DNA of 60,610 nt, the filler included. It is 9 parts of 9 records of this genome, joined end to end, with 100 filler letters (N's around TTAATTAATTAA, not from the genome) between each part and the next. Parts side by side here need not be neighbours in the genome. Positions count along the whole stretch, not along the records: positions 49,480 to 55,253 come from SRR2962707_3145; 8 more parts are not named here. One strand, given 5' to 3'. Below are positions 1-57,351 of the stretch, piece after piece. Under the pieces are notes generated by a model, which was given only the letters and a program-made list of their open reading frames with translations, was not told the origin of the DNA and did no database searches. Positions within the stretch are counted from its first letter, which is position 1. Each line of letters starts with the position of its first letter. Made by a program: the position numbers and the translations under genes.

Positions 1-1176
1 GGTCTTGGACCAGAGGTGATGGTTTTCGTGCACCTTGACGTAGCCCTCGGGCGCGGTTTCCAGCTCGACCCCGATCTGGGCCTCGCGCACCTTATCGATG
101 TCAAAGGACCCGGCCTTTTCCACAGCAGCCTTCCACAGCCACGGGCCCAGATAGGCGGCCTGCGTCACGTCGCCGATGACGATGTCCTCGCCCCACATGT
201 CCTTGAACGCCTTGACAAAGGCGATATTGTTCTCGTTATCGAGGGACTGGAAATACTTCATGCAGGCATATGCGCCTTCCATGTTCTCGCCGCCGATGCC
301 GCGGATCTCGTCCTCGGTCACCGAAATCGTCAGCACGATCGGCGCTTCTTTGGTCATATCGATGCCGGCCGCCTTGAGCTGCTTATAAAAGGCCACGTTG
401 GACCCGCCGACGACGATGGCATAGATCACGTCAGGCTTTCTCAGACGGATCTTGTTGATGACCGAGTTAAACTGCGTGTGGCCAAGCGGATAGTAATCCT
501 CACCGACGACCTTGCAGCCTTCCATGAAGTTCTCGATGTGCTTGCGGGCGATCTTGTTCGATGTGCGCGGCCAGATGTAGTCGGACCCCAGCAGATAGAA
601 GGACTTGGCGCCCTTCGTCTCGTTCACCCAGTTCAGGCCGGCGATGATCTGCTGCGTCGCTTCCTGACCTGTGTAGATCACGTTTGGCGATTCCTCGAGG
701 CCCTCGTAGAAAGTTGGGTAGTACAGCATGCCGTTGTTCTGCTCGAACACCGGGAGAACCGCCTTGCGGCTGGCCGAGGTCCAGCACCCCATAACCGAGG
801 CCACCTTGTCATTGACCAGCAGCTTGCGTGCCTTTTCGGCAAAGGTCGGCCAGTCGGATGCGCCATCTTCCTGGATATATTCGATCTTGCGCCCCAGGAT
901 CCCGCCCTGTGCATTGATCTGCTCGATGGCAAGCTTTTCAGCCTGCACCGACCCGGTTTCCGAGATCGCCATCGTCCCGGTCACCGAATGCAAAATACCG
1001 ATGGTCACGGTGTCATCGGTGACGGCCAGACCGGTCGTGTTGATTGCGGCTGTGGGATAATCCTGTGCGAACAGCGCCTTTGGGGCGAACAGTGCAGCGG
1101 TCATTGCGGCGCTACTGGCCATAAAGGCACGGCGGCTGGGTCCGGCCGGGTTCTTTGGTATCTTGCGATCAGTCAT
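1..1176 (-). CDS. urtA: Urea ABC transporter substrate-binding protein (3' truncated at window edge)
   Basis: Not in the ORF track. Manual minus-strand translation from ATG 1176 (AAGGAG RBS upstream): MTDRKIPKNPAGPSRRAFM (Tat motif)...VTIGILHSVTGTMAISE...EDGASDWPTFAEKARKLL...GCWTSASRKAVLPVFE...YYPTFYEGLE...GSDYIWPRTSN, all typical UrtA motifs. Confidence 0.93.
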   Translation of the reverse strand, partial: MTDRKIPKNPAGPSRRAFMASSAAMTAALFAPKALFAQDYPTAAINTTGLAVTDDTVTIGILHSVTGTMAISETGSVQAEKLAIEQINAQGGILGRKIEYIQEDGASDWPTFAEKARKLLVNDKVASVMGCWTSASRKAVLPVFEQNNGMLYYPTFYEGLEESPNVIYTGQEATQQIIAGLNWVNETKGAKSFYLLGSDYIWPRTSNKIARKHIENFMEGCKVVGEDYYPLGHTQFNSVINKIRLRKPDVIYAIVVGGSNVAFYKQLKAAGIDMTKEAPIVLTISVTEDEIRGIGGENMEGAYACMKYFQSLDNENNIAFVKAFKDMWGEDIVIGDVTQAAYLGPWLWKAAVEKAGSFDIDKVREAQIGVELETAPEGYVKVHENHHLWSKT

Positions 1177-1276
1177 TTCAGCTCCTTGTCGGGTGATTGC
1201 GTCGGCATTTTGGGGCTTTTTCCACCCATTGCGTTTTTTATGCCTGCTCACTGTCCGCCATGATGCTGCGCAGCAG

Positions 1277-53293: not shown

Positions 53294-53445
53294 ACCAAAG
53301 ACCAAATAAAATCAGGTATAGGAAACTCTAACCTCCATATACCTTGCTTTCTTTGGCAGAAAACGCGCGTTACCTGTCCTTTCCGCCTGAGCCGTGCGGC
53401 GCGAGGATGCGGGGCATCGTTCGACACGAGCCCCGGAGCCTCGCC

Positions 53446-54558
53446 ATGCGCACTCAGAACATCGCCATTCCTCTCGCCTTCTTCCTGCTGATCGGCCTGA
53501 TGATCGCCGCGACGGCGGTGGGGGCGGAGACGCTCGATGCCGCGCCTGTCGAACCGAAGCCGGGACGCGAGCGCGTCGTTGTTGCCGTGACCGCACTGAA
53601 CGAGGGAACGGAGGTGACGGATTTTCTCGTGCCTTACGGCATTCTCTCCGAAGCGGGCGCGGAGGCTGTCGCCGTTGCGCCGGAGGCGGCGCCCGTGTCG
53701 CTCTGGCCGGCGGGGCGCATTCTTCCCGATGCGGACTTCGCGGGCTTCGACGCCGCCTACCCAGATGGCGCGAACATCGTGATCGTGCCAGCCATGATCG
53801 ACCCGGAAGACGAAGCGATGCGCGGCTGGCTCAAGGCGCAGGCCGCGAAGGGCGCGATCATGGTGTCGATTTGCGAGGGCGCGCGCGTACTGGCAGGCAC
53901 CGGGCTGCTCGACGGACACCGCGCGACCGGACATTTCTACGAACATGACGGCCGCGAAGACGATTTCGAAGCGGTTGAGTGGGAGCGGAACGCCCGCTAT
54001 GTCGTGGACGGCGACAGGATTTCATCCGCCGGGGTCAGCGCCTCGCTGCCCGTCTCGCTGATGCTCGCGGAGCGGATCGCCGGACGCGAGCGCGCGGAAG
54101 AAATTGCCGCGCGCTACGGCGTGGCGGACTGGGGCACCGCCCACAACAGCGACGCCTTCGGCATCGGCATGAGCGAGATGGCAACGGCGCTTAAGAACCT
54201 GATCCTCGGCTGGCCGCGCGCGGACATCCTCGTCGTGGCGGAAGACGGCGTGAGCGAGGTCGACGTCGCCTTCCCGCTCGACTTCGCGGCGCGAAGCTGG
54301 CGGAGCAGCGCCGGGCTTTTCGCAAGCGAGCCGGAAGTAACGACGCGGAACGGGCTGACCCTGCTCGCGGACGAGACGGGAACGCCGCCCGGCGGCGCGC
54401 TTGTTGTCCGCCTGCCCGGCGGCGAAGGCGAAGCAGATGTGACGCTCGGCAGTTCCGCGACGCTGCGCGAGGACATGCTCGCCTGGATCGAAACCCGCTT
54501 CGGCGGGGGCACGGCGCGCTTCGTCGCGATCCAGCTCGAATATCCGGCGGCAAACTGA
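53446..54558 (+). CDS. DJ-1/PfpI family protein, exported, tandem-domain
   Basis: Signal peptide; GTEVTDF, IVIVPA, SICEGA (nucleophile Cys), ATGHF, SSAGVSAS; second degenerate DJ-1 domain (DGVSEVD..TRNGLTL). Confidence 0.85.
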   Translation: MRTQNIAIPLAFFLLIGLMIAATAVGAETLDAAPVEPKPGRERVVVAVTALNEGTEVTDFLVPYGILSEAGAEAVAVAPEAAPVSLWPAGRILPDADFAGFDAAYPDGANIVIVPAMIDPEDEAMRGWLKAQAAKGAIMVSICEGARVLAGTGLLDGHRATGHFYEHDGREDDFEAVEWERNARYVVDGDRISSAGVSASLPVSLMLAERIAGRERAEEIAARYGVADWGTAHNSDAFGIGMSEMATALKNLILGWPRADILVVAEDGVSEVDVAFPLDFAARSWRSSAGLFASEPEVTTRNGLTLLADETGTPPGGALVVRLPGGEGEADVTLGSSATLREDMLAWIETRFGGGTARFVAIQLEYPAAN

Positions 54559-54605
54559 GCCGCAAAGAGCCATTTTCCGCAGGAAACCGCCGAATTCTGC
54601 GTGCC

Positions 54606-54633
54606 CTTGTTTTTCCGGTCAGGCACCCCATAT
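54606..54633 (+). promoter_or_regulatory. RpoH (sigma32)-like promoter
   Basis: CTTGTT-14 nt-CCCCATAT. Confidence 0.6.
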
Positions 54634-54640
54634 CTCTATC

Positions 54641-54799
54641 ACCGAGGCATGTTCCAGCGCGCAACGCGCGGCAGGAGCGGCCACCCGGCTCAAGGCCGGG
54701 CCCGAAAGGGCGGTAATTCATTTCGGCGCCCGACCACGGATGTAATGGCGATGCAGTCGAAATGATTGGGACAAGGCCGGGAGACTCCCGGCCTTTTTT
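54641..54799 (+). ncRNA. Candidate ~160-nt structured small RNA
   Basis: Own promoter, consecutive hairpins (GCGCG/CGCGC, CCCGGC/GCCGGG, CCC-GAAA-GGG, TCATTTCGGC/GTCGAAATGA), U-tailed terminator, no credible ORF. Confidence 0.6.
54773..54799 (+). terminator. Intrinsic terminator
   Basis: AAGGCCGGGA-gac-TCCCGGCCTTTTTT. Confidence 0.85.
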
Positions 54800-54864
54800 C
54801 ATTTCTGGCTCCCCGCGCGGGATTTGGCGTGGCGCGCCGCCCCGACACGGAAAGGAGCGACCTC

Positions 54865-55125
54865 ATGTCCGCACGAAAAAAGGCCCTCTTCAAGGATACG
54901 CCGACGCAGGTCCGCGCCACCAAGGCCGACAAGACGACGGAAATCGCCATGCAGATTGCCGAAAAGGAAGCAAGCGACCGCGCCACCAAGACGGAAAAGC
55001 TGAAAGCGCTCCGCCTTGAGAGAGAAGCCGTCGAGGCGGCCGAAGCGAAGAAGGCCGAGGCCGCAAAGAAAAAGACCGCCACGCCGAAAAAGAAGGCCCG
55101 GGCGAAAGTACCCGAACCCGCCTGA
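54865..55125 (+). CDS. Small basic Lys/Ala-rich hypothetical protein (86 aa)
   Basis: AAGGAG RBS; KTEKLKALRL motif seen in small alphaproteobacterial proteins. Confidence 0.75.
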   Translation: MSARKKALFKDTPTQVRATKADKTTEIAMQIAEKEASDRATKTEKLKALRLEREAVEAAEAKKAEAAKKKTATPKKKARAKVPEPA

Positions 55126-55145
55126 ACGCAGAGCAGCGGAAAAGC

Positions 55146-55176
55146 AAAAGCCCGGATCTTTCGATCCGGGCTTTTT
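55146..55176. terminator. Bidirectional terminator
   Basis: AAAAGCCCGGATC-tttc-GATCCGGGCTTTTT. Confidence 0.88.
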
Positions 55177-55195
55177 GTTTGAGCCGCGCGGCGCC

Positions 55196-55252
55196 TCAGT
55201 TGTCGAGGAAGGAACGCAGCTTCCGCGAGCGCGACGGATGCTTGAGCTTGCG
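55196..55252 (-). CDS. rpoD: RNA polymerase sigma factor RpoD, C-terminal fragment
   Basis: RKLKHPSRSRKLRSFLDN* is the sigma70 C-terminus. Confidence 0.93.
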   Translation of the reverse strand, partial: RKLKHPSRSRKLRSFLDN

Positions 55253-55253
55253 C

Positions 55254-55353
55254 NNNNNNNNNNNNNNNNNNNNNNNNNNNNNNNNNNNNNNNNNNNNTTA
55301 ATTAATTAANNNNNNNNNNNNNNNNNNNNNNNNNNNNNNNNNNNNNNNNNNNN
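55254..55353. other. Artificial contig linker
   Basis: N44-TTAATTAATTAA-N44. Confidence 0.99.
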
Positions 55354-55362
55354 GAGTTTTTC

Positions 55363-57351
55363 ATGTCATCGGATGCACAATCCTTGGAAATGAGAATGGC
55401 GAATGCCATCCGCTTTTTAGCAGCCGATGCGGTACAGGCCGCAAAATCGGGCCACCCCGGTATGCCGATGGGCATGGCCGATGCGGCGACGGTGCTTTTT
55501 ACCAAGCATCTGAAATTTGACGCTGCAAACCCTGATTGGCCGGACCGGGACCGGTTCATTCTGTCGGCCGGTCATGGGTCGATGCTGATCTATTCGCTTT
55601 TGCATCTGACCGGCTATGAAGACATGACGATGGATGAACTCCGTAATTTCCGCCAACTGGGCGCGAAGACGGCCGGACATCCGGAATACGGTCATGCCAA
55701 GGGGATTGAAACAACGACCGGGCCGCTGGGGCAGGGTATTGCCAACGCGGTCGGTATGGCCCTTGCAGAGCGCATGATGAATGCCCGCTATGGGGACGAT
55801 CTCGTAGATCACTACACTTATGCCATCGTCGGTGACGGCTGCCTTATGGAAGGGATCAGTCACGAAGCGATTTCCATGGCCGGGCACCTGGGCCTTTCAA
55901 AGCTGATCGTTCTTTTTGACGACAACGGCATCTCGATTGACGGCAGTACCAACATGGCCGTTTCCGATAACCAGCAGGCACGTTTCGAAGCATCGAACTG
56001 GCATGTTCAGTCGGTCGACGGCCACGACCATGCAGCAATTGCGAAGGCGATCGAAAATGCAAAGGCAAGCGACAAGCCGTCGATGATTGCTTGCAAGACG
56101 ACCATCGGTTTCGGTGCACCGACCAAGGCTGGGACGGCATCAACCCACGGCGCGCCGCTTGGCGATGACGAAATCGCCGGTGCCCGCGAAGCCCTTGGCT
56201 GGGAAGCCGGTCCGTTTGAAGTTCCCTCGGATGTTCTCGACAACTGGCGTGCTGCCGGTAGCCGTGGCAGCTCGATAAGAGAATCCTGGGAAGCCCGTCT
56301 GGAAGCCTCGGACAAGGCGGAAGAATTCAACCGCACCATTGACGGGACCTTACCTGCCGGCGTCTCGGAGGCGGTCATCGCACACAAGAAGCGCGTTTCC
56401 GAGGAACAGCCGAAGTGGGCGACGCGCGTTGCATCCGGGGAGTCCCTGAATGTTCTGACGCCGGTTATTAAGGAACTGGTTTCAGGGTCCGCCGATCTGA
56501 CCGGTTCAAACAATACCAAAACACCGGATACGGACTCGCTGACCCCGGATAATTTTGCCGGTCGTTATATCCATTACGGTGTGCGGGAGCATGGTATGGC
56601 TGCGGCCATGAACGGCATAGCACTGCACGGCGGACTGATCCCGACCAGTGGGACGTTTCTTGTGTTCGCCGATTATATGCGTGGCGCCATGAGGCTGTCG
56701 GCGCTGATGGGCAAGCGCGTGCTCTATGTGCTGACGCATGACAGCATCGGGCTTGGCGAGGATGGCCCGACCCACCAGCCGGTTGAAACACTCTCCATGC
56801 TGCGGGGAACACCAAACTTCATGATGTTCCGCCCTTGTGATGGTGTTGAGGCGGTGGAATGTTGGCAGGTGGCTCTGGAAAACGCCAACGGCCCCTCTGG
56901 CTTTGCCCTGTCGCGTCAGGGGGTGCCGACACTGCGGACGGCGCACACCAATGAAAATCTGTCCGCGAAGGGTGGTTACGTGCTCGAAGATGCCATAGCA
57001 TCGGATCGCAAGGTTACGCTTTTGGCGACAGGTTCCGAGGTTCACCTTGCGACTGCCGCACGCGAGGTGCTGGAAGCAGACGGCATCGGGACGGCGGTGG
57101 TTTCCATGCCATGCTGGGAATTATTCGATCAGCAGAGCAAGGATTATCGGGATGCGGTCCTGGGCGAAGGTTCCGTCCGTGTCGCGGTTGAAGCCGCCGT
57201 GCGTCACGGTTGGGATAAGTACATCGGTCCCGAAGGGGGCTTTGTTGGGATGGACGGGTTTGGTGCATCAGCACCTGCAGGTGACCTGTACAAGCATTTT
57301 GGCATTACCGCCGAGGCAGTTGTCGCCGCGGCCAGGGAAAGACTGGTCTGA
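55363..57351 (+). CDS. tkt: Transketolase
   Basis: [40 protein letters not shown]. Confidence 0.98.

Follow-up and report, generated by a model that had tools for sequence, protein, structure and literature searches.

The locus at positions 54606-54801 on the plus strand of the window (the whole stretch of DNA analysed, 60,610 nucleotides) was identified, from its sequence and those of its relatives, as a real and conserved structured RNA gene with its own predicted promoter and terminator. By the same comparisons the RNA is a divergent member, from the Parvibaculum lineage, of the alphaproteobacterial ar35/Smr35B/SmelB053 family, and is not a new RNA class. What appears to be new is the additional 5' domain, which is unusual, and the constant pairing with a small ORF. 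The 3' half corresponds to the 'ar35b' module of that family, described in 2011-2012, and the novelty suggested by an earlier reading made from the letters of the window alone (the sequence-only reading) does not extend to it.

The features of the locus are listed in Table 1. All hairpins, the terminator and the sigma32-like boxes of the CCCCATAT-promoted RNA were present, and the candidate RNA measures about 160 nt, from ~54640 to 54800 (+). The sequence-only reading had described the boxes CTTGTT-N14-CCCCATAT, an ACCG(54641)/CGGT(54711) helix closing three hairpins, and a long stem followed by a U-tailed terminator; each of these was recovered. Its statement that no ORF with a ribosome-binding site lies inside the element needs a qualification: a 54-aa GTG ORF is listed at 54601-54765, but it begins before the -35 box, and indels of 1-2 nt in close homologues disrupt its frame.

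Table 1. Coordinates of the RNA gene and of its neighbours in the window
Feature	Position	Strand	Basis or remark
404-aa ORF with DJ-1/PfpI domain	53344-54558	+	upstream neighbour of the RNA
Predicted RpoH (sigma32)-type promoter	54606-54633	+	boxes and conservation among relatives
-35 box CTTGTT	54606-54611	+	followed by a 14-nt spacer
Extended -10 box CCCCATAT	54626-54633	+	sequence
Predicted transcription start	~54640	+	inferred
Lineage-specific 5' domain, four-way junction	54641-54714	+	minimum free energy and consensus folds
Closing helix ACCG/CGGT	54641-54644 / 54711-54714	+	encloses three hairpins
Junction hairpin 1	54646-54682	+	fold
Junction hairpin 2	54684-54700	+	fold
Junction hairpin 3, GAAA loop	54701-54710	+	fold
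Long stem TCATTTCGGC.../...GTCGAAATGA, the ar35b core hairpin	54718-54765	+	Rfam ar35 alignment
Apical loop CGGAUGUAA	54737-54745	+	closed by CCA/UGG and a G-C pair with a bulged A
ar35b module (hairpin and AAGGCCGGG terminator), 3' half of the RNA	54718-54799	+	family comparison
Intrinsic terminator, hairpin 3 of the ar35 family	54766-54801	+	stem and T-run, extended by UGGGA/UUUCA pairing
Terminator stem AAGGCCGGG / CCCGGCCUU	54773-54795	+	10 pairs, 7 of them G-C
Terminator U6 run	54794-54799	+	run of six T in the DNA
86-aa basic ORF, Lys/Ala/Glu-rich	54865-55125	+	conserved; RBS GGAAAGGAG at 54850-54858

Next to the small ORF, positions 55196-55252 (-) encode the last 18 residues and the stop codon of an RpoD-type sigma factor (RKLKHPSRSRKLRSFLDN and stop). 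This rpoD tail abuts a run of 44 N at 55254-55297, and the transketolase gene tkt starts 66 nt beyond, at 55363 (+). Relatives carry a full rpoD convergent to the small RNA and the ORF, and the rest of the gene was therefore masked or lost at an assembly joint.

The whole 60.6-kb window gave zero matches in an Rfam scan at the gathering scores, in line with the sequence-only reading, which saw no motifs of SRP, 6S, tmRNA, suhB, cuckoo RNAs or common riboswitches; at permissive settings the full ar35 model (RF02346, model positions 1-144) aligned to 54683-54802 with 39.7 bits (E 5e-6; gathering score 45). ar35 was the sole family with a sizeable match to the locus, and the strongest part of the alignment was GACCACGGAUGUAAUGGC together with the terminator. 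The window copy thus stays below the gathering score of RF02346, and L146, a relative in synteny that shares the promoter, scored 47.4 bits, above it; Rhizobiales copies scored 42-142 bits on the same model. The other sub-threshold matches (sul1 on the minus strand, M23, 6C, asX1, SorX, P9 and CRISPR-DR4) were dropped, and the sul1 match at 54648-54706 (-) was judged to be a by-product of the G+C-rich hairpins 1 and 2 (28.2 against a gathering score of 36.2 bits).

The architecture of the family was taken from two papers. In del Val et al. (2012; PMC3346310) ar35 RNAs consist of three hairpins, of which the second and third make up the sub-module 'ar35b', with about 40 occurrences in Rhizobiales and a 5' hairpin that varies or is missing. 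Its Table 1 lists the S. meliloti members as discrete RNAs of about 139 nt (139 for ar35) with RACE-mapped 5' ends, the 3' ends being assumed at the terminator U-run and the positions matching deep sequencing. Reinkensmeier et al. (2011; PMC3927594) describe RFMSmelB053 with a most variable stem-loop 1, a stem-loop 2 that carries GGAUGUA and a terminator as stem-loop 3; the module also makes up 3'UTRs, which belong to cold-shock genes in 29 of 33 cases, and the stand-alone RNAs were suggested to be possible 'interceptor' decoys. Both papers treat the 5' hairpin as the most variable part, at times missing.

The window RNA shares with this family the second hairpin with its GGAUGUA loop, the sequence-conserved AAGG(C/U)CGGG intrinsic terminator as third hairpin (six T follow the stem), a promoter of its own and a 5' part that differs between lineages; a conserved hairpin 2 plus terminator behind a variable or absent 5' domain is what defines the ar35b sub-module. 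It differs in that a 74-nt four-way junction, with a closing helix and three hairpins, replaces the single 5' stem-loop of the three-hairpin form. ar35 RNAs range from 139 to 142 nt in length. The window RNA differs further in having one copy per genome in the Parvibaculum-like genomes searched, in its tight link to a small basic ORF, and in its Parvibaculum-like host, which lies outside the families named in PMC3346310 and PMC3927594. In the literature searched, no description of this RNA in Parvibaculum was found, the one small-RNA match there concerning cuckoo RNAs, and the 2020 review (PMC7143759), in its Table 1 and in the passages matching the search terms, gives no target for SmelB053.

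The exact 18-nt hairpin tip GACCACGGATGTANTGGC was found at at least 120 loci in public genomes, mostly of Hyphomicrobiales and also of other alphaproteobacteria; two of the loci listed are evident chance matches in coding sequence of Coriobacteriaceae. The tip crowns lower stems of quite different sequence with their pairing preserved, the AAGG(C/U)CGGG-type terminator stem also occurs in the Rhizobiales copies, and loop and terminator are identical between stand-alone RNAs and csp 3'UTRs. A Pfam scan covered 108 ORFs of 40 codons or more that lie upstream of the module at the 120 loci listed; 61 of them belong to Pfam CSD, one encodes ribosomal protein S21, and 38 had no family at E <= 1e-5, in keeping with the cold-shock 3'UTRs of PMC3927594. 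The Rhizobiales ar35b elements share the hairpin tip, the terminator and the portability of the module with the Parvibaculum-lineage RNA, whose shortest relatives (L137-L139) have the minimal form; they differ in lying mostly at the 3' ends of csp mRNAs, whereas the module in the window is placed 5' of a gene, behind a predicted stress promoter of its own, and no csp-linked copy was found in the Parvibaculum-like genomes searched. In Pleomorphomonas (L001) the module comes after the ribosomal protein S21 gene. At two further loci (L048 and L061) a csp gene and the module are followed by a small ORF with a K-T-x-R-L-R-x-L-R-L motif, as in the basic protein of the window.

Relatives were reached through a Parvibaculum MAG contig (L034), whose family of genomes was searched. 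The element was found in 27/61 genomes by blastn, and in 28/73 genomes (E <= 1e-4), mostly as a single copy per genome, with a covariance model trained on 10 close sequences. Twelve close sequences scored 148-191 bits on this model and the others 30-77 bits. The 28 loci and the window make up the 29 family sequences examined, and all 29 carry the promoter boxes, the GGAUGUAA hairpin and, without variation, the AAGGCCGGG...CCGGCCUUUUUU terminator. Measured from the -10 box up to where the U-run ends, they span between 90 nt and 207 nt, the variable part being the 5' part: three sequences (L137-L139) are without the 5' domain and span ~90 nt, two (L132 and L141) have it reduced, and six (L133-L135, L140, L144 and L145) have a closing helix and three hairpins like those of the window with different sequences. 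A second, degenerate module (loop GCGGAUGUACCGG, AAGGUCGGG terminator) was seen in L144 at ~1089-1187 (-) and in L145 at ~705-835 (+), about 120 nt past the stop codon of the small basic ORF, so that the gene is bracketed by the module.

The plus strand folded with a minimum free energy of -78.1 kcal/mol (z = -4.03; none of 200 shuffles was as good) and the minus strand likewise folded well (z = -3.42), so that folding energy alone cannot choose the strand. What singles out the plus strand is the T-run along with the promoter and the conservation of G-U pairs; several pairs are kept as U-G or G-U on that strand and would be C-A mismatches on the other. An RNAalifold consensus of the 10 close sequences held 56 pairs, just 2 of them with compensatory changes. 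The junction is present in 18 sequences, 16 of them distinct; in this set 97.0% of the cells were paired and the terminator sequence was invariant. Compensatory changes were found in 12 of the 56 pairs (16 distinct sequences), against a mean of 5.2 after shuffling (0 of 500 shuffles reached 12) and 2-5 in slid controls; the alignment was fitted to the model and the changes stem from about three clades, so that the independent covariation events are few. Within that limit, the homologues bear out the structure drawn from the single sequence. The junction helices 1, 3, 4 and 5 hold 2, 2, 1 and 4 such pairs, respectively. As judged from these alignments, the 5' junction (54641-54714) is a lineage-specific domain, kept in 18 sequences and with compensatory changes in all four helices; it is reduced or missing in other family members.

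The E. coli sigma32 consensus includes an extended -10 element, CCCCATNT. The window has a -35 TTG and an extended -10 box of this kind at a fixed spacing, its -35 box being of the TTGT(A/T)(A/T) type and not TTGAAA; dependence on RpoH is thus predicted. The pattern matched once in the window, where 0.10 matches were expected, and one or more matches also turned up in 9 of 100 shuffles, so that it is weak on its own; what gives it weight is its conservation. The arrangement TTG-N16-CCCCATAT persists in 28/29 family sequences while the spacer sequence varies, which supports the promoter type proposed earlier; the exception, L147, has N17 and GCCCATCT.

A search of 5 related genomes with CTTG-N15-17-CCCCATNT gave 35 matches; the reversed pattern, used as control, gave 3. 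Among the 30 motif loci listed (L151-L180; genomes G007, G022, G026, G028 and G047), 14 had an RBS-preceded ORF start 33-60 nt downstream; these comprised MsrB-like (4 loci), DUF1232-like (5), DUF2333-like (3) and NnrU-like (2) genes, and peroxiredoxin (AhpC/TSA) and MarR genes lay farther downstream of the motif. Pfam assignments (SelR, DUF2333, DUF1232, NnrU, AhpC/TSA and MarR) were made for a single locus from each group, 7 of the 30 in total, and the others were assigned by visible similarity. dnaK and groES of two relatives are preceded by CTTG...CCTATAT or CCTATCT boxes, not by CCCCATAT. By sequence, the promoter is of the RpoH (sigma32) type and groups with those of protein-damage and oxidative genes rather than of classical chaperones. 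A stress promoter, not necessarily a heat promoter, is therefore indicated, since the motif precedes msrB, DUF1232, DUF2333, NnrU and peroxiredoxin genes and not dnaK or groES; the heat-shock promoter of the sequence-only reading stands as to sigma-factor type and is not supported as to heat specifically.

In R. sphaeroides, RpoHI and RpoHII recognise alike sigma32-like promoters that have a conserved TTG and resemble those of E. coli sigma32, and RpoHII serves the singlet-oxygen response (PMC3441632), in which Msr enzymes increase (PMC7074977). The S. meliloti copy, SmelB053/smrB35, is listed with the predicted promoter motifs 'RpoD RpoH1/2' (PMC7143759, Table 1). It is possible that the window promoter is used by sigma70, the alphaproteobacterial consensus CTTGAC-N17-CTATAT quoted in PMC3346310 being similar to its boxes. 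The set of genes carrying the motif (MsrB/SelR, DUF1232, DUF2333, NnrU, AhpC/TSA and MarR) looks like an oxidative/protein-damage regulon of an RpoH paralogue in the Parvibaculum lineage.

Two RpoH-like genes were found in each of two relatives checked (381 and 284 bits on TIGR02392), and comparison of the regions upstream of dnaK, groES and rpoH did not distinguish which paralogue acts. About 130-150 nt before the start codon of the weaker paralogue lies GGAAC-N16-17-(C)GTT (L183 of G047 and L184 of G007), which we take to be an ECF/EcfG-like promoter motif and which suggests control of the weaker RpoH by a general-stress sigma factor. An inverted repeat, TTGGCACTC-N9-GAGTGCTAA, lies between promoter and groES in L187 (G007) and L188 (G047); it resembles the CIRCE/HrcA operator.

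A homologue of the 86-aa ORF was found by tblastn 3' of the RNA in 25 of the 28 related loci, starting 24-140 nt past the terminator, so that a conserved gene on the same strand directly follows the RNA. Two of the other loci (L137 and L139) lack the ORF and in the third (L142) the contig ends too early; in L139 the 3' end of rpoD lies 27 nt after the RNA. The 86-aa protein matched no Pfam or NCBIfam family, its homologues are named 'hypothetical protein [Parvibaculum sp.]', and the protein atlas places it in an unnamed cluster (0.90). At five loci (L132, L143, L144, L145 and L147) the ORF starts just 24-25 nt past the terminator, which leaves no space for a separate promoter, and a scan of 54300-55250 for sigma70-like promoters found none. 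The ORF is therefore most simply read as co-transcribed with the RNA through read-through, and the RNA is probably also the leader of the gene for the 86-aa basic protein, which would be expressed in this way.

To look for an antiterminator, the RNA was folded with and without the terminator. The fold with the terminator had -80.4 kcal/mol and that without it -64.1, a loss of 16 kcal/mol, and no competing antiterminator fold was obtained. Hairpin 2 was considered as an antiterminator, its CCCGGCU/AAGGCCGGG arms repeating those of the terminator, and was rejected, that alternative, in which its 5' arm pairs with the 5' arm of the terminator (-56.4 kcal/mol), being energetically far worse. Because its removal costs 16 kcal/mol and no fold competes, the terminator looks, by these calculations, too stable for much spontaneous read-through. 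The attenuating leader of the sequence-only reading is thus upheld in its link to the small basic gene and not in the switch that attenuation would employ; each of its two readings, an independent small RNA and a leader, probably holds in part.

The reading that we favour, with a probability of roughly 0.65, is that the RNA is a divergent ar35 member transcribed under stress, which acts in trans through its GGAUGUA loop and is, by partial read-through, also the mRNA for the 86-aa protein. Transcription would rise through an RpoH paralogue under protein-damaging or oxidative/heat-type stress, and most transcripts would end at the terminator, yielding a stable small RNA. It would act in trans through the exposed CGGAUGUAA (GGAUGUA) loop and the neighbouring A/U-rich linkers UAAUU and AUUGGGA, either by docking to a conserved partner, protein or RNA, or by pairing over a short stretch. 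The 5' junction would be a lineage-specific addition for specificity or stability. A fraction of the transcripts would pass the terminator and serve as mRNA of the basic protein, making the RNA both a small RNA and a leader. In favour of an RNA in its own right are the strong, invariant terminator and the two loci (L137 and L139) that keep promoter, hairpin and terminator without the ORF.

Those two loci, together with the lack of an antiterminator fold and the discrete ~139-nt RNAs of S. meliloti (PMC3346310, Table 1), tell against a purely cis-acting 5' leader of the basic ORF, working through regulated termination or mRNA stability and having no trans function. The constancy and closeness of the ORF downstream and the failure to detect a separate promoter in 54300-55250 would fit such a leader, as would the second GGAUGUA-like hairpin and terminator that bracket the gene in L144 and L145, and the attachment of the module elsewhere to genes as a 3'UTR element, after CSD genes in 61 of the 108 upstream ORFs scanned at the loci listed and in 29 of 33 cases in PMC3927594; on balance we consider it rather unlikely.

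We give still less credence to an 'interceptor' decoy, an RNA that under stress would titrate an RNase complex, Hfq or a Csp-type protein which otherwise reads the module on the 3' ends of cold-shock mRNAs. It was proposed for SmelB053 (PMC3927594), and the identity of loop and terminator between stand-alone RNAs and csp 3'UTRs agrees with it; loop and terminator stem are both conserved in sequence, which suits recognition by a protein. In 5 Parvibaculum-like genomes, however, the only GGAUGUA hairpin with a terminator was the small RNA itself: a loosened hairpin pattern gave 30 matches there against 36 in the control, and only the 5 small-RNA loci folded as a hairpin followed by a T-run. Since no csp 3'UTR in these genomes carries a competing module, the decoy idea is weakened in the Parvibaculum lineage.

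Finally, a minus-strand element (a sul1-like RNA, RF03058, E 0.0037), or chance G+C-rich palindromes plus the terminator of the DJ-1/PfpI-domain gene that ends at 54558, is highly improbable even though the minus strand folds well, given the sub-threshold sul1 score, the C-A mismatches expected on that strand, the location of promoter boxes, T-run and ar35 match all on the plus strand, and the fact that the element is conserved, compensatory changes included, in 28 of 73 family genomes.

The favoured trans-acting RNA resembles in outline SorY and StsR of R. sphaeroides, which are stress-induced alphaproteobacterial small RNAs, StsR being induced by RpoHI/RpoHII. It differs from both in that there is no relationship in sequence or structure and in that targets are known for SorY and StsR only; the related R. 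sphaeroides RNA SorX scored 14.5 bits on the window against a gathering score of 46.6.

A broader reading, which we regard as speculative and unlikely, is that the GGAUGUA hairpin and terminator form a portable post-transcriptional signal placed on genes for small nucleic-acid-binding proteins, and that in Parvibaculum this signal came under an RpoH-type promoter and yields a trans-acting small RNA and a factor-dependent read-through mRNA. The genes seen with the module encode CspA-type proteins, once ribosomal protein S21, and the Lys/Ala-rich 86-aa protein. If this reading is true, the heat/oxidative and the cold-shock post-transcriptional circuits would be linked through a shared reader of the loop.

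With the assignment made here, the ar35/SmelB053 family takes in a lineage that belongs to none of the families which the papers of 2011-2012 name. Because each genome searched has a single copy, the RpoH-type promoter is sharply conserved and the gene neighbour is fixed, the Parvibaculum lineage would offer cleaner conditions than the multi-copy rhizobial system in which to look for the reader of the GGAUGUA loop, and the locus offers a concrete case for whether the terminator of a small RNA gates the small-protein gene downstream of it.
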